Positions 18,020 through 22,214 of a stretch of 48,404 nucleotides of DNA are shown here, one piece after another. Each line of letters opens with the position of its first letter. The first letter of the stretch is position 1. A program made the position numbers and the translations under genes. The notes beneath the pieces were generated by a model that worked only from the letters and a program-made list of their open reading frames with translations, was not told the DNA's origin and made no database searches. Origin of the DNA: an uncultured Gammaproteobacteria bacterium (GTDB taxonomy: Bacteria; Pseudomonadota; Gammaproteobacteria; GCA-002705445; GCA-002716945); assembly GCA_913041905.1 (NCBI GenBank), contig CAJWJQ010000002.1, positions 1 through 48,404 of the forward strand, read 5' to 3'.

Positions 18020-18415
18020 ATGAGAAAATTTGAAACTTTGTTAATAGAAAATAATATAACACCAACAAAGCAGCGACTTGATTTAGCAGAAATAGTATTT
18101 GTAAGGAATCAACATTTTACAGCAGCTGATTTGATTAATACTGCTAACGAATCTAAACTGTTTATTTCACAAGCAACAATTTATAACACACTATGTATAT
18201 TTGAAGAAAAGGGGTTGTTAAAAACAATAAATTTACAAAATGAGTGTAAATTCTACGACACGAACCTTAGCTCTCATCACCATGTTTATAATACTAGTGC
18301 AAATACTTTAACAGATATAAGTAATGACCAAATTAAGTTTTCTAAAAAACCTGATATACCCCAACACCTTGAGCTAGAAGCAACAGAAGTATTGATTAAA
18401 GTAAAAAATAAATAA
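18020..18415 (+). CDS. Fur-family transcriptional regulator, Cys-less Irr-like subtype
   Basis: 131 aa with a winged-helix region (TPTKQRLDLAEIVF...ISQATIYNTLCIFEEKGLL), then FYDTNLSSHHHVY. There are no CxxC pairs. The overall layout resembles rhizobial Irr as I recall it. Confidence 0.7.
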   Translation: MRKFETLLIENNITPTKQRLDLAEIVFVRNQHFTAADLINTANESKLFISQATIYNTLCIFEEKGLLKTINLQNECKFYDTNLSSHHHVYNTSANTLTDISNDQIKFSKKPDIPQHLELEATEVLIKVKNK

Positions 18416-18997
18416 CTATAAAAAATCTTTGCGAAGAGATTGAGTAATTAGTTTGTCTATTTTTATAGAATCATTATAATCCTTATGATCACAACCTAAA
18501 AATATTTCGTAAGAATTCTGGAAACCACGAATACATTCTTCATCTAATTGAAATCTTAAGAAATGGACTGCGGATGTTTTTTTGTCATTTGACCTTTCTA
18601 AATCTTCGTCAGGGATTGCATATAATTTTTGTGAATTATCAACTGTAAGCCAAATATTATTTTCAATACCTTTCAATTTACTCAGCATTGTTTTTCTATG
18701 ATTTACATCTGAATACATAATTAACATAGTAGCCTTTAAATTATTGCCTTCGGGTATTAAAGGTTGGTAAGCGTTTATTTCATCCTGAATTTCTTCTTCG
18801 TTAAAAATTTTCTCAATTCTGAGCATTTCTTGCACCTGATATTTAATAGTTTCAAAATCTTCAAATAATAGAACTATGTGTTCTCCAATAGAGACCGCTC
18901 TATTTTTTTTATGATTAATTAAATTTGATTTAATAGTTTCTCTTTGTTTGTCATAATTCTCGAGAGATAATAAATCATTAGCTGTTAATTTACGCAT
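18416..18997 (-). CDS. DUF3501-family protein (function unknown)
   Basis: 193-aa soluble protein. Its length, and its position downstream of a CCG Fe-S protein and a rubrerythrin, match my recollection of the DUF3501 family context. Needs HMM confirmation. Confidence 0.55.
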   Translation of the reverse strand: MRKLTANDLLSLENYDKQRETIKSNLINHKKNRAVSIGEHIVLLFEDFETIKYQVQEMLRIEKIFNEEEIQDEINAYQPLIPEGNNLKATMLIMYSDVNHRKTMLSKLKGIENNIWLTVDNSQKLYAIPDEDLERSNDKKTSAVHFLRFQLDEECIRGFQNSYEIFLGCDHKDYNDSIKIDKLITQSLRKDFL

Positions 18998-19005
18998 AAT
19001 TTTCT

Positions 19006-20310
19006 CTAATTTATCCCGTAGGCTCTTTTAAATAAACTAATTGGGTGTATTGGCGGGATTTTATTACCGACAGCATTTACAATATGATGCGCTGCTAACG
19101 TGCAATCACTGGTTAAAATTTCTGCTTTATCTTTATTAAATTCTCTTACTATTGGTTTTGCTATCTTTATCGCAATTTCATGAGTCTCTTTTTTAACACC
19201 ATAAGTTCCATCATGTCCAGAACATTTTTCTACAGCATTAACATTGGTATTTGGTATAAGTTCTAAAACTTTTTTAGTTACTTGTCCAATATTTTGCACT
19301 CTCTGATGGCATGCAACTTGATAAAAAATAGAGCCTAGATCTTGTTTAAAATCAATTTTAAGATTACCATCTTCATGAAGGTTTAATAGATATTCAAAAG
19401 GGTCATAAATTGAGTCTGCAATTTTTTTAATTTCTATATCATTAGGAAATAATAGTGGCAGTTCTTTTTTAAACATCAATACACACGAAGGGACTGGCGC
19501 TATAATTTTAAATCCTTTTTCAATATAACGCATTAATTTGACAGAATTTTGTTGTATTACTTTTTCTACTGTCGCCAAATCTCCTAATTCAAGTTTTGGC
19601 ATTCCGCAACATTGATCATCTTTTATAACTTCAATGTTAATATTATTGTGTTGTAATACTAACACTAAATCATCGATCACCTGTGGCTCATTATAATTAT
19701 GATAACAGGTTGTATATATCGCTACCTTATGTATAGAATTATCATTGCTTGAAAGTTTTTTAAATTTGGATTTAGCTGTTATAGCAGAAAATTTTGGCAA
19801 TACAGCATTTTTATGAATATGTAAAATTTTCTCTAACAAGATTCTAAAAGGTTTTAACTTATTAAAGAAATTAACTATGTGTGAAATAATTTTTCTAGAG
19901 AAAACTACACCTAAAAGATCGGTAGATGTTAATAATCTATCTCTAAAAGATGGTTTTAATTTATTAAATTTTATTGCTTTGCCTCTTAACATTAAGTGTG
20001 GGAAGTCAATTTTCCAATCATGAGGTGGCACATATGGGCATTTCGTCATAAAACATAAATCACATAAATAACAATGACTGATGACAGACTCAAAATCATT
20101 ATACTCTACCCCATCAACCTCAAACGTTTTCGAGTTATCTATTAGGTCAAATAATGTGGGGAAAGAGTTGCATAAACTAACACATCTTCTGCATCCATGA
20201 CATGCATCTGCAACCCTTCTTAATTCCTTTTCAAATAATTTTTCATTATAATAATCGGTATTTTTCCAATCGATAACATATCTTTCGGGTTTTTGTAGAC
20301 CACCTTCCAT
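19006..20310 (-). CDS. (Fe-S)-binding CCG-domain oxidoreductase, HdrD/GlpC/LutA-like
   Basis: 434 aa with two 4Fe-4S ferredoxin motifs (CHGCRRCVSLC and CYLCDLCFMTKCP). There are two CCG-type domains, QCCGMP and a degenerate KCSGHDG. A GGAG RBS lies 5 nt upstream of the ATG. Confidence 0.8.
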   Translation of the reverse strand: MEGGLQKPERYVIDWKNTDYYNEKLFEKELRRVADACHGCRRCVSLCNSFPTLFDLIDNSKTFEVDGVEYNDFESVISHCYLCDLCFMTKCPYVPPHDWKIDFPHLMLRGKAIKFNKLKPSFRDRLLTSTDLLGVVFSRKIISHIVNFFNKLKPFRILLEKILHIHKNAVLPKFSAITAKSKFKKLSSNDNSIHKVAIYTTCYHNYNEPQVIDDLVLVLQHNNINIEVIKDDQCCGMPKLELGDLATVEKVIQQNSVKLMRYIEKGFKIIAPVPSCVLMFKKELPLLFPNDIEIKKIADSIYDPFEYLLNLHEDGNLKIDFKQDLGSIFYQVACHQRVQNIGQVTKKVLELIPNTNVNAVEKCSGHDGTYGVKKETHEIAIKIAKPIVREFNKDKAEILTSDCTLAAHHIVNAVGNKIPPIHPISLFKRAYGIN

Positions 20311-20375
20311 CGCTACTCCAGTCTTTTGGGTTTAATATATTGGCAGCTATCCTTAAAAAGAAAGTAAAAAATATT

Positions 20376-20795
20376 TTATGATATTGTCTCTAGAGCTTTA
20401 GCAAATCTATTTGCGTGCGATCTTTCAGCTTTTGCTAAAGTTTCAAACCAATCAGCTATTTCATCAAAACCTTCATCTCTAGCAATTTTGGCCATACCAG
20501 GATACATATCGCTATACTCATGCGTTTCACCAGCTATCGCTGCCTTAAGATTTGCACTGCTGTCTCCAATTGGTTCGCCAGTTGCAGGATCACCACATTC
20601 TTTTTCAAGATATTCCATATGTCCATGCGCATGTCCAGTTTCACCTTCAGCAGTTGATCGAAAAACTGCAGCAACATCGTTTTGACCTTCAACATCAGCT
20701 TTTGCTGCAAAATATAAATACCTTCTATTTGCTTGTGATTCACCAGAAAATGCATCTTTAAGACTTTGTTCAGTTTTGGAACCCTTTAAATTCAT
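20376..20795 (-). CDS. Rubrerythrin-family diiron protein lacking the rubredoxin domain (erythrin type)
   Basis: 139 aa with the four-helix-bundle ligand pattern GESQA / EGETGHAHGH / AGETHEY / AERSHANRF. There are no C-terminal CxxC pairs. AGGAGA RBS upstream. Confidence 0.85.
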   Translation of the reverse strand: MNLKGSKTEQSLKDAFSGESQANRRYLYFAAKADVEGQNDVAAVFRSTAEGETGHAHGHMEYLEKECGDPATGEPIGDSSANLKAAIAGETHEYSDMYPGMAKIARDEGFDEIADWFETLAKAERSHANRFAKALETIS

Positions 20796-20818
20796 TTTAT
20801 TCTCCTTTTTTTAAATAA

Positions 20819-20835
20819 CTTAGAATCATTCTAAG
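20819..20835 (-). promoter_or_regulatory. Perfect 8-1-8 palindrome CTTAGAAT-C-ATTCTAAG, an Irr/ICE-like operator candidate
   Basis: Read directly from the sequence. The core TTAGAA-N3-TTCTAA equals the core of the ICE consensus TTTAGAA-N3-TTCTAAA. It lies 24-40 nt upstream of the rubrerythrin ATG. Confidence 0.6.
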
Positions 20836-20856
20836 TCTAATTATAGCGGTTGTCAA
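20828..20856 (-). promoter_or_regulatory. Predicted sigma70-type promoter of the rubrerythrin operon
   Basis: On the minus strand: -35 TTGACA (20856-20851), a 17-nt spacer, and -10 TAGAAT (20833-20828). The -10 lies inside the palindrome. Confidence 0.55.
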
Positions 20857-20902
20857 TTGATGCATATAAAAAAAACACGGAAGTATGATAAACTAATATT
20901 TT

Positions 20903-21940
20903 ATGGAAATTAAAAAAATTTTTTTTTCGATATATAAACAGTTAATTTTTCTTCTACCTCCAGAAACAGCTCATTCTGTCACTTTGTCTATGGCAGAAAA
21001 AGTCTATAAATCATTTTTAAAAAATATAGTTTCTTCTAAAATAACAATTAATGAGAGAAAAGTTATGGGAATTACTTTCCCTAATATGCTTGGACTTGCT
21101 GCAGGTTTTGATAAAAACGGTGACTATTTAAATTTTATAAATAACATAGGATTAGGCTTTGTTGAGTTAGGCACGATAACACCAAAACCTCAGTACGGAA
21201 ATAACAAACCTAGAATATTTAGAGTTACCAGCGAAGAAGCAATTATTAATCATCTTGGTTTTAATAATAAAGGAGTATCTTACTTAAAAGAAAAACTTAG
21301 ACATTTTAATAGGAATATACCAATTGGTATAAATATTGGTAAAAATAGTAGTACTCCAATTGATAAAGCTTATGAAGACTATGAGTATTGTATGCATGAA
21401 ATTTTTGAATTTTCTGATTATCTTACGTTAAATATATCTTCACCTAATACTCTCAAGCTCAGAGAGCTTCATTCTAAAGATTATTTAGATAATTTTTTAA
21501 AAAAAATTAAAACCACTCATGAAAAATTATCAAAAAGATATAAAAAAAATGTTCCTTTATTACTAAAAATATCTCCAGATATTACTCAAGAAGATCTTGA
21601 TAATATTTGTAATTCTATAAAACATTATGGTATTGATGGTGTCATAGCAACAAATACTACTATAGATAAATCAATTCTAAAAAATAAAAAACTTTTAAGA
21701 TATAGTGGCGGTGTTAGTGGTATGCCGTTATTAACAAAATCTAATAAAATTATTGAATCATTAAAAAAACTTGTAGGAAGTAATGTGGCTATTATTGGTT
21801 GTGGAGGTGTATCATCAAAAGAAGCAGCTTTAAATAAGATTGCGTTAGGCTCTGATTTAATACAACTATACACGGGTCTTGTTTATTCAGGAACAAGTTT
21901 GATTCAAGAAATTACAGGTTTAAACAATAAGTCTATTTAG
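20903..21940 (+). CDS. pyrD: Dihydroorotate dehydrogenase (quinone), class 2
   Basis: 345 aa with an N-terminal membrane-association helix and GLAAGFDKNG, GFVELGTITPKPQ, NISSPNT and IGCGGV motifs. Confidence 0.9.
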   Translation: MEIKKIFFSIYKQLIFLLPPETAHSVTLSMAEKVYKSFLKNIVSSKITINERKVMGITFPNMLGLAAGFDKNGDYLNFINNIGLGFVELGTITPKPQYGNNKPRIFRVTSEEAIINHLGFNNKGVSYLKEKLRHFNRNIPIGINIGKNSSTPIDKAYEDYEYCMHEIFEFSDYLTLNISSPNTLKLRELHSKDYLDNFLKKIKTTHEKLSKRYKKNVPLLLKISPDITQEDLDNICNSIKHYGIDGVIATNTTIDKSILKNKKLLRYSGGVSGMPLLTKSNKIIESLKKLVGSNVAIIGCGGVSSKEAALNKIALGSDLIQLYTGLVYSGTSLIQEITGLNNKSI

Positions 21941-22214
21941 GTTTCCAGATTCCAAAGGCTTCTTGCTTATTGTCAGGTTGTTGGTTAGGTATATCTTGAA
22001 TTTGCTGTTTATATACATACCTAATAAAATCTAAAATCTGATTTAGTATTTCATCCTGTTGCTCTTTTGGTAAATTTGATGTAGCAATAATTGATCCTAC
22101 TACAGCTGATAAATATTGTGCAGCAAGAATAGGATCTTCATTAGCAGGCTCATAATCTACAAGCACTTTCTGCAATTCCTTAATTAATTCAGGTTTTAAA
22201 ACTATCTCGGTCAT
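21933..22214 (-). CDS. Hypothetical acidic 93-aa protein
   Basis: Open frame in AT-rich DNA. Its 3' end overlaps pyrD by 8 nt (convergent). I recognise no motif. Confidence 0.4.
   Translation of the reverse strand: MTEIVLKPELIKELQKVLVDYEPANEDPILAAQYLSAVVGSIIATSNLPKEQQDEILNQILDFIRYVYKQQIQDIPNQQPDNKQEAFGIWKPK

Follow-up and report, generated by a model that had tools for sequence, protein, structure and literature searches.

The window analysed here, a 48,404-nucleotide stretch of DNA from an uncultured low-GC marine gammaproteobacterium, carries three consecutive genes encoding a rubrerythrin (RBR), an iron-sulfur protein (RFO) and a protein of the DUF3501 family, with a gene for a Fur-family regulator next to them (Table 1). 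A preliminary description of this DNA had placed three open reading frames on one strand with gaps of 65 and 8 nt, which is exact, and had read them as a single operon with one good promoter and no internal hairpin. We find this reading likely, as the promoter agrees with the sigma-70 type at 11 of 12 positions and the terminator scan returned no terminator-like site within the operon. The promoter is the top-scoring site in a scan of 3.3 kb, its -35 hexamer TTGACA and the spacer length are retained in relatives (alignment A1), and an AGGAG ribosome-binding site is located 5' of rbr. The spacer between rbr and rfo folds no better than shuffled sequences (z = +0.9), and an Rfam search of the window matched no RNA family. 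Three metatranscriptome contigs, X21 (20253-20403), X23 (20189-20440) and X26 (20173-20379), cross this spacer from end to end with 0-2 mismatches, and a fourth, X24 (20328-20561), covers most of it and continues into rbr. These contigs stem from four metatranscriptome runs of three studies and none of them reaches the junction between rfo and the DUF3501 gene; since metatranscriptomes may include DNA, the coverage of the rbr-rfo junction has to be read with this caveat.

Table 1. Genes and predicted regulatory features of the rubrerythrin locus, in positions of the window.
Feature	Position	Strand	Support
rbr, rubredoxin-less aerobic-type rubrerythrin, 139 aa	20376..20795	(-)	PF02915
rfo, Fe-S protein with 4Fe-4S motifs and CCG domains, 434 aa	19006..20310	(-)	PF02754
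DUF3501 gene, 193 aa	18416..18997	(-)	PF12007
rbr-rfo spacer, 65 nt, transcribed through	20311..20375	(-)	metatranscriptome contigs
rfo-DUF3501 gap, 8 nt; DUF3501 start 8 nt past rfo stop	18998-19005		
sigma-70-type operon promoter, TTGACA-17 nt-TAGAAT	20828..20856	(-)	11/12 matches
Irr-box / iron-control-element-type palindrome, predicted repressor operator	20818..20836; core 20820-20834	.	
Irr-like Fur-family regulator, 131 aa	18020..18415	(+)	PF01475

Profile searches returned the expected families for all three proteins, in agreement with the preliminary assignments. RBR matches the Rubrerythrin family at 1.4e-28, with a Ferritin overlap as the only other Pfam match. As had been described, it has the full diiron pattern and no rubredoxin domain: the ligands E19, E52, H55, E90, E93, E124 and H127 are all there, each conserved in 95% or more of 49 homologues, while its single cysteine is not conserved and no CxxC occurs. 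A comparison with structures in the PDB retrieved the Burkholderia pseudomallei rubrerythrin BpRbr (4DI0/9ONM, 1e-70) and sulerythrin (1J30, 1e-48), with identical ligand positions. By homology, RBR can be assigned to the rubredoxin-less diiron rubrerythrins represented by sulerythrin of Sulfolobus tokodaii, ferriperoxin of Hydrogenobacter thermophilus and BpRbr, all of which are single-domain proteins. Members of this type, as shown for homologues, convert H2O2 and organic hydroperoxides into water or alcohol, and by analogy RBR may do the same. Ferriperoxin is an NADPH- and FNR-dependent peroxidase required for aerobic growth (PMC3317640), sulerythrin is also active as a peroxidase, and oxidative stress induces BpRbr; each of the three was studied alone, and in H. 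thermophilus, unlike in the window operon, the rfo gene lies apart from rbr and the DUF3501 gene (PMC5114695). The classical rubrerythrins of Desulfovibrio vulgaris and Pyrococcus furiosus, which act together with rubredoxin and an NADH:rubredoxin oxidoreductase, have the diiron peroxide-reducing chemistry in common with this type, and both they and RBR need an external one-electron donor chain. The classical enzymes, however, carry their own rubredoxin-like FeS4 domain, whereas in the window this domain is missing and a separate iron-sulfur protein is encoded.

RFO matches the CCG family at 7e-13 in two stretches, with weak matches to Fer4 dicluster models. Its two ferredoxin motifs (C37-x2-C40-x2-C43-x3-C47 and C80-x2-C83-x2-C86-x4-C91-P) are followed by a first CCG domain (C202, C234-C235-G, C276) and a degenerate second one (C334, C363-S-G, C403), so that the two 4Fe-4S motifs and two CCG domains described earlier are present, the second CCG domain as CSG. 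All 15 motif cysteines are invariant across 31 sequences. The order of two 4Fe-4S ferredoxin motifs and two CCG domains is common to HdrD/HdrB, GlpC, LutA and mycobacterial EtfD (PDB 9OJN). The top NCBIfam match is GlpC with 225.5 bits against a cut-off of 278, the TIGR model scores 160 against 280, and RFO stays below every NCBIfam equivalog cut-off. We rejected an identification as GlpC, the subunit C of anaerobic glycerol-3-phosphate dehydrogenase, on the basis of this score and the lack of glpA/glpB neighbours: such genes do not lie near the trio in the window or in 52 related gammaproteobacterial loci, and the loci also lack nearby genes for other flavoprotein partners, which sets RFO apart from the known CCG-domain iron-sulfur proteins. 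A complete HdrD/HdrB catalytic subunit, defined by two full CXnCCGXmCXXC motifs with ten cysteines that hold two non-cubane [4Fe-4S] clusters, was likewise rejected, as RFO has seven conserved CCG cysteines where HdrB has ten, carries CSG in domain 2 and has lost both CxxC ends.

A sequence search of the PDB with RFO gave no match, and the fold comparison alone succeeded. In the AlphaFold2 model (pLDDT 90.7) the CCG half resembles LutA (9A6L, TMt 0.81) and HdrB (8RVY/5ODC, 0.6-0.65) in Foldseek, and the whole chain aligns with EtfD (9OJN) over 403 columns; the model thus predicts for RFO the fold of LutA and HdrB and of the soluble portion of EtfD. EtfD and HdrE have a membrane or cytochrome b part, which RFO lacks: its sequence contains no transmembrane segment (maximum KD19 1.3), and the basic linker of residues 103-175 is not outstandingly amphipathic. 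Neither result speaks for or against a quinol site. The protein is soluble and basic, and its pI of 8.6 is complementary in charge to that of RBR (4.9) and of the acidic DUF3501 protein (5.5).

The 193-residue third protein had been proposed to belong to DUF3501, and it matches PF12007 over its full length at 4.8e-69. It aligns with the PDB entry 3FJV at 8e-52, and its model (pLDDT 91.7) finds only this structure in Foldseek (TM 0.94), the next matches lying below a TM of 0.3. Because the search returns nothing beyond the structure of its own family, this orphan fold gives no functional lead. The protein has no conserved cysteine or cofactor motif; its invariant residues are E46, E57, E62, E73, E112, D132, H145 and H171.

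In order to place the locus among its relatives we compared it with the 52 related loci, which range from 25 to 69% GC. The trio occurs in the order rbr-rfo-DUF3501 on a common strand in 46 of them, and because of this recurrence we dismiss a chance arrangement. Two loci (L050 and L038) carry RBR and DUF3501 without RFO. No natural fusion of RFO and DUF3501 was found in the 52 loci or in the best 150 family representatives; open reading frames of 645-651 aa in L025 and L032 that look like such fusions were rejected as out-of-frame artefacts of high-GC DNA. When all open reading frames of the 52 loci were clustered, oxyR was the only recurrent extra neighbour, and no flavoprotein, cytochrome, ferredoxin or thioredoxin recurred that could be a candidate electron donor. 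The DUF3501 profile as such retrieves 3461 protein clusters at 50% identity.

This co-localisation is also in the literature. Cardenas, Quatrini and Holmes described the trio in 2016 under the name aerobic-type rubrerythrin system, made up of RBR, RFO and DUF3501, found all three genes in 185 complete genomes and almost never apart, noted RBR with DUF3501 but without RFO in Thermoproteales, and put forward the hypothesis that RFO stands in for the lost rubredoxin domain (PMC5114695). The trio has since been reported from protist mitochondria (Gray et al., 2020, PMC7050145), in further studies of 2020 (PMC7852563, PMC7760498) and in 2025 (bioRxiv 10.1101/2025.06.01.657255). The window contains a rubredoxin-less diiron RBR, a DUF3501 gene and a COG0247-type iron-sulfur oxidoreductase with CCG domains, nearest to GlpC, all co-localised; the three families, their order and the proposed role of RFO are identical to those of the published system (PMC5114695, PMC7050145), from which nothing structural differs. 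The window trio is an ordinary copy of this system and no novel system type, and the novelty implied by the preliminary description does not hold, the same electron-donor hypothesis having been published with the name. Its statement that the members lack an assigned function stands for RFO and DUF3501 and falls for the rubrerythrin component, whose function has been demonstrated. What distinguishes the window copy is that an Irr box and the gene of an Irr-like regulator accompany it.

The Irr-like gene is convergent with the DUF3501 gene, with 0 nt between the two, and is syntenic in 19 relatives. Its product matches PF01475 at 6e-18 and scores 107 bits with the NCBIfam model Irr (cut-off 170), 106 with IrrA (also below cut-off) and 78 with PerRA. 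The motif H86-H87-H88 is invariant in 20 sequences and no CxxC is present. Its best 120 homologues all come from one marine gammaproteobacterial group, which speaks neither for nor against a transfer of the gene from SAR11. Upstream of rbr lies the palindrome ACTTAGAA-TGA-TTCTAAGT with an exact core TTAGAA-N3-TTCTAA; as it overlaps the -10 hexamer, it is predicted to be a repressor operator. Taken by itself, a single such site in a window lacks significance, since 59 of 100 shuffled sequences give at least one match with at most one mismatch. In an alignment of relatives the Irr box is, however, the sole invariant stretch of upstream regions that have diverged elsewhere, and it is perfect in 18 of 18 relatives that have an adjacent Irr-like gene and a covered rbr upstream region, as well as in L020 and L029. 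The Irr-like Fur-family protein probably represses the rbr operon through this palindrome.

The predicted circuit resembles that of Irr and the iron control element in Alphaproteobacteria such as Bradyrhizobium, whose operator consensus of the TTTAGAA-N3-TTCTAAA type is matched by the window operator in repressor position and whose regulator is also a cysteine-poor Fur-family protein with an HHH motif. The differences are that the Irr circuit is alphaproteobacterial while the window host is a gammaproteobacterium, that the window regulator remains below the Irr model cut-off, and that the direction of its iron response may differ. The product of blr7895 of Bradyrhizobium has been described as rubrerythrin-like with good homology to R. 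sphaeroides MbfA. We take blr7895 to be the iron exporter gene mbfA, and for this reason rejected it as a homologous Irr target of the trio type. A closer parallel is Pelagibacter ubique, which has the trio: there, as in the window, the predicted target is a rubrerythrin operon, in fact the sole one of a minimal Irr regulon, a pairing stated to be absent outside Alphaproteobacteria (PMC1698941). Under iron limitation of P. ubique, rbr mRNA rises 1.57-fold and the DUF3501 protein 2.2-fold (PMC2864753), the opposite of simple Irr repression at low iron. Oxidative stress is another signal to which Irr responds, and in several alphaproteobacteria irr mutants withstand peroxide better (PMC3413700). 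Other relatives of the locus carry Fur boxes, 12 of 33 distant loci have an adjacent oxyR, and the region upstream of rbr contains OxyR-type sites in 8 loci; these sites match at 13-14 of 16 positions, a score reached in 0 of 200 shuffles. The suggestion that the module acts in peroxide or iron stress fits the Irr-type operator with its Irr-like neighbour, the adjacent oxyR genes and OxyR-type sites of distant relatives, and the peroxidase homologues.

Taken together, we consider it quite probable that the window encodes the published aerobic-type system as one operon, in which RBR is a peroxidase fed by RFO, DUF3501 is a partner protein and expression is under Irr-type control. RFO, with or without DUF3501, may serve as the electron donor of RBR. 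It would act as a soluble, basic HdrD/GlpC/EtfD-like protein with two [4Fe-4S] clusters and a reduced CCG site, receiving electrons from a donor that is most plausibly a thiol/disulfide couple or quinol, and its ferredoxin-like clusters would deliver single electrons to the acidic RBR dimer, thereby substituting for the lost rubredoxin domain. DUF3501 is most likely a partner of RBR in docking or assembly, since the two occur together even in genomes that lack RFO. Transcription would proceed from the one sigma-70 promoter, its -10 element covered by the Irr-type palindrome, with the Irr-like protein as probable repressor; repression would probably be lifted by haem or iron sufficiency, by peroxide, or by both. 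A bolder version, possible in our view and yet more doubtful than not, holds that RFO docked by DUF3501 links rubrerythrin to the cellular pool of thiols or to that of respiratory quinols. In this case the trio would represent a separate class of diiron peroxidases, driven by thiols or quinols and so running on the reductants of aerobic cells, and conserved in SAR11, in marine gammaproteobacteria and as far as the mitochondria of protists; in the window lineage the Irr-like protein would be a haem or peroxide sensor with PerR-like logic rather than a plain low-iron repressor.

Alternatively, RBR could be a peroxidase fed by a general donor such as ferredoxin:NADPH reductase, with RFO and DUF3501 serving its maintenance by re-reducing, re-metallating or repairing the oxygen-exposed diiron site. 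Ferriperoxin indeed turns over in vitro with FNR and NADPH in the absence of RFO and DUF3501 (PMC3317640), and the lineages that have RBR and DUF3501 alone agree with this. Metal binding by BpRbr is promiscuous and sulerythrin as isolated contains mixed metals, so metal loading could need help, for which the invariant histidines and carboxylates of the cysteine-free DUF3501 would be suited. The Km of ferriperoxin for H2O2 with FNR is, however, in the millimolar range (PMC3317640), which suggests that in the cell FNR is not the best partner, and RFO, which accompanies this RBR type almost without exception and has the architecture of an electron-transfer protein, suits a catalytic relay better; we regard a maintenance role as improbable. 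It appears less probable still that the module handles iron instead of peroxide, with RBR serving as a ferroxidase or as a small buffer of iron and RFO mobilising or reducing the metal. This would explain the control by iron regulators, seen in the Irr box here and the Fur boxes of relatives, and is in line with the ferritin-like superfamily to which RBR belongs and with the annotation of the mildly iron-limitation-induced P. ubique rbr as a hypothetical ferroxidase (PMC2864753). Yet the characterised members are peroxidases, RBR is a dimer rather than a storage cage, the oxyR linkage and OxyR-type sites in many relatives indicate peroxide, and Irr itself is responsive to oxidative stress. That the genes are merely co-regulated neighbours and RFO is a GlpC-like subunit of a dehydrogenase unrelated to RBR, as its top NCBIfam match might suggest, is very unlikely because of the published co-occurrence, the synteny of the loci compared here and the gene order kept from archaea to mitochondria, and the sub-cut-off score and missing partner genes also speak against it.

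The value of the window copy is modest and lies in its regulatory wiring rather than in a new kind of system. The module is widespread, being found among the most abundant bacteria of the sea as well as in the mitochondria of protists, and the copy described here extends the unit of Irr operator and rubrerythrin beyond the Alphaproteobacteria. One type of operon would thus be wired to Irr, Fur or OxyR depending on the lineage, which strengthens its assignment to peroxide or iron stress.

The three genes, which lie in a window of ~29% GC and are separated by 65 nt (rbr/rfo) and 8 nt (rfo/DUF3501), were compared with the Pfam profile library. The families named in the preliminary description were all matched (Rubrerythrin, CCG and DUF3501; Fer4 dicluster weakly), and each of its factual statements on the trio, from open reading frames, gaps and families to diiron ligands, Fe-S motifs and promoter, was reproduced. 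The rubrerythrin (RBR) carries the diiron ligands E19, E52, H55, E90, E93, E124 and H127, each conserved in at least 95% of 49 homologues, and contains no CxxC. The Fe-S protein (RFO) features two ferredoxin motifs (C37/40/43/47 and C80/83/86/91), followed by a CCG pair in which seven cysteines are conserved (202, 234, 235 and 276 in domain 1; 334, 363 and 403 in domain 2), the second domain having CSG in place of CCG.

Features of the rubrerythrin operon, with metatranscriptome contigs mapped on window coordinates and lists of related loci (L numbers)
Feature	Position	Strand	Properties
RBR ORF	20376-20795	-	139 aa; Rubrerythrin PF02915, 1.4e-28
RFO ORF	19006-20310	-	434 aa; CCG PF02754, 7e-13, two stretches
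DUF3501 ORF	18416-18997	-	193 aa; PF12007, 4.8e-69, full length
Irr-like gene	18020-18415	+	Fur-family; best NCBIfam matches Irr and IrrA, both below cut-off
Sigma-70-type promoter	20856..20828	-	TTGACA-17-TAGAAT, strong
Contig X21	20253-20403		whole rbr-rfo spacer crossed
Contig X23	20189-20440		whole rbr-rfo spacer crossed
Contig X26	20173-20379		whole rbr-rfo spacer crossed
Contig X24	20328-20561		most of spacer, extends into rbr
oxyR-bearing loci			L019, L022, L024, L025, L026, L027, L034, L035, L042, L046, L047, L052
Relatives with good Fur box			L002, L006, L007, L009, L011, L013, L014, L018

[quoted passage not shown] The window operon is a member of this known, named module, and the novelty implied by the preliminary description is not supported. 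Among 4461 complete genomes, 185 encode RBR, DUF3501 and RFO and 25 RBR and DUF3501 only, while the helper genes almost never occur without RBR; Pelagibacter ubique HTCC1062 (DUF3501 gene SAR11_0401) and marine gammaproteobacteria, HTCC2143 and HIMB30 among them, appear in the tables of the same study (PMC5114695). Protists, including Andalucia, also encode the trio, there targeted to mitochondria (Gray et al. 2020, PMC7050145), and its linkage to oxyR has been noted in Sideroxydans (Zamkovaya et al. 2020, PMC7852563). For the biochemical question, this locus offers no easier route than the culturable carriers already known.

A search with the DUF3501 protein, covering a single genome of each species, yielded 52 related loci, mostly from marine MAGs or single-cell genomes and nearly all labelled gammaproteobacterial (one Rhodospirillaceae, two with general labels only). 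The co-localisation of the three families, for which the preliminary description had proposed a check, is borne out: 46 of the 52 share the order rbr-rfo-DUF3501, at 25-69% GC. In a SAR86 MAG (L028:6001-6585) DUF3501 stands alone, flanked by coaD/fpg and a P450 gene; in L050:5502-6588 and L038:3-793 rbr is followed directly by DUF3501, with rfo absent between them; L004 and L048 are cut by a contig end, and in L052 rbr is broken. The closest relative, L001 (MAG SP3089), has the entire neighbourhood in common with the window (one flank with lptE, an MBL hydrolase and pyrD; the other with the irr-like gene, a dehydrogenase and holA). RBR is extremely conserved, with 80-96% identity across genomes of 25-69% GC, a range over which its partners fall to 42-50%; apart from the near-identical L001 (RFO 94%, DUF3501 92%), RFO shows 45-74% and DUF3501 42-67% identity. 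Clustering of all flanking ORFs in the 52 loci revealed no recurrent fourth redox gene, the sole recurrent extra neighbour being a LysR-type regulator. Between pyrD and the MBL-fold hydrolase, the window also holds a 93-aa acidic ORF (21933-22214, minus strand) matching no Pfam family, with a conserved ~96-aa ORF in the same place in 17 relatives.

Homology identifies RBR as a diiron peroxide reductase, its structure matches including BpRbr (1e-70) and sulerythrin (1e-48). The related ferriperoxin uses NADPH and FNR to reduce H2O2 as well as organic hydroperoxides, and its disruptant does not grow aerobically (PMC3317640); peroxidase activity of sulerythrin is cited in a 2025 preprint on B. 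pseudomallei Rbr, which also reports that oxidative stress induces BpRbr (bioRxiv 10.1101/2025.06.01.657255). Our literature searches found no experimental study of either RFO or DUF3501. A proposal that RFO makes up for the lost rubredoxin domain dates from 2016 (PMC5114695), and the operon partners were again suggested as electron donors in the 2025 preprint; the preliminary idea of RFO as electron supplier of RBR thus coincides with a published hypothesis and is not new.

The predicted RFO structure (pLDDT 90.7) superposes in its CCG half on LutA (TMt 0.81) and HdrB (0.60-0.65), and the whole chain aligns with mycobacterial EtfD over 403 columns; however, the membrane part of EtfD is absent from RFO, and no transmembrane segment was found in RBR, RFO or DUF3501. 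RFO is basic (pI 8.6), RBR (4.9) and DUF3501 (5.5) acidic. The DUF3501 model (pLDDT 91.7, high confidence) matches only PDB 3FJV (TM 0.94), a B. pseudomallei structural-genomics protein with no assigned function, the remaining matches being noise. Its invariant residues, among them the helix TIKYQVQEMLRxE, H145 and H171, are charged or aromatic, and include no cysteine. RFO is inferred to be the electron-input protein for RBR: its two ferredoxin-type clusters would stand in for the rubredoxin centre that RBR lacks, and its CCG site would admit electrons from an upstream donor, which could be a thiol/disulfide couple, on the analogy of HdrD, or quinol, on that of GlpC and EtfD. DUF3501 would probably be an RBR-binding adaptor or assembly factor, because it accompanies RBR even without RFO and has no cofactor motif. 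In the main rival reading, RBR would draw its electrons from a general reductase, in the way ferriperoxin draws them from FNR, and upkeep of the metal site would fall to RFO and DUF3501.

The recomputed operon signals agree with the single upstream promoter and lack of internal terminator described before: no terminator-like site was found inside the operon, and the 65-nt spacer folds no better than shuffled sequence. Ribosome-binding sites precede rbr (AGGAG) and rfo (GGAG), and since DUF3501 starts only 8 nt past the rfo stop, its translational coupling to rfo is suggested. Contigs from four marine metatranscriptome runs (three studies) match the rbr-rfo junction with 0-2 mismatches, which supports co-transcription of the two genes; these are assembled contigs, with DNA carry-over possible, and none covers the rfo-DUF3501 junction. 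Neither an intergenic base nor a terminator-like hairpin separates the convergent Irr-like gene and DUF3501 at 18415/18416, so transcripts from either side must enter the opposite gene, and antisense interference between regulator gene and operon is possible.

A palindrome forming a perfect Irr box, ACTTAGAA-TGA-TTCTAAGT, overlies the -10 element of the rbr promoter. A single match in 48 kb is not significant by itself; in the alignment of rbr upstream regions, the box is the only invariant island among otherwise diverged sequence, and every one of the 18 relatives with both a convergent Irr-like gene and the rbr upstream region has it in perfect form (a 19th, L004, ends before rbr and is outside this count). 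L020 and L029 (a 62% GC genome) have the perfect box as well, and L021, L030 and L031 have symmetric variants of it (TTAGAC-N3-GTCTAA). In L029 (3996-4145), L021, L030 and L031 the box or variant lies 5' of rbr, yet the 12-kb locus is without an Irr-like gene; this implies that an Irr-like regulator is encoded at another place in these genomes, and that the circuit has a wider spread among Gammaproteobacteria. The Irr-like protein has an invariant HHH motif and lacks CxxC. Rodionov et al. (2006, PMC1698941) reported finding neither Irr nor its box beyond the Alphaproteobacteria, and predicted a minimal Irr regulon in P. ubique consisting of its rubrerythrin; the window lineage, with its box and Irr-like gene, would be an exception to this restriction. 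Under iron limitation, P. ubique rbr mRNA rises 1.57-fold and DUF3501 protein 2.2-fold (PMC2864753), the reverse of what simple Irr repression at low iron would give, and mutants lacking irr in several alphaproteobacteria show greater peroxide resistance (PMC3413700). For these reasons, the Irr-like protein may mainly be a haem- or peroxide-sensitive repressor.

Among 33 distant loci, 12 (with labels such as SAR86, Pseudomonadales and Halieaceae) have oxyR next to the trio, divergent from rbr in some and 3' of DUF3501 in others. The adjacent OxyR matches NF008361 (328 bits in L047, 235 in L024) and carries the redox cysteine motif, and a four-element OxyR-type site (ATAG-N7-CTAT-N7-ATAG-N7-CTAT) with 13-14/16 matches, a score reached by 0/200 shuffles, lies 5' of rbr in eight loci. 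Relatives of the window's clade have a good Fur box (15-17/19 matches, e.g. GATAACAAGAATCATTATC) in addition to the Irr box, ~35 nt upstream of the -35 element of the rbr promoter; it is lost in the window (20860-20902) and L001, with 11-12/19 matches only. Depending on the lineage, regulators of the peroxide or of the iron response are wired to the same operon, which supports a role of the trio in peroxide and iron stress.
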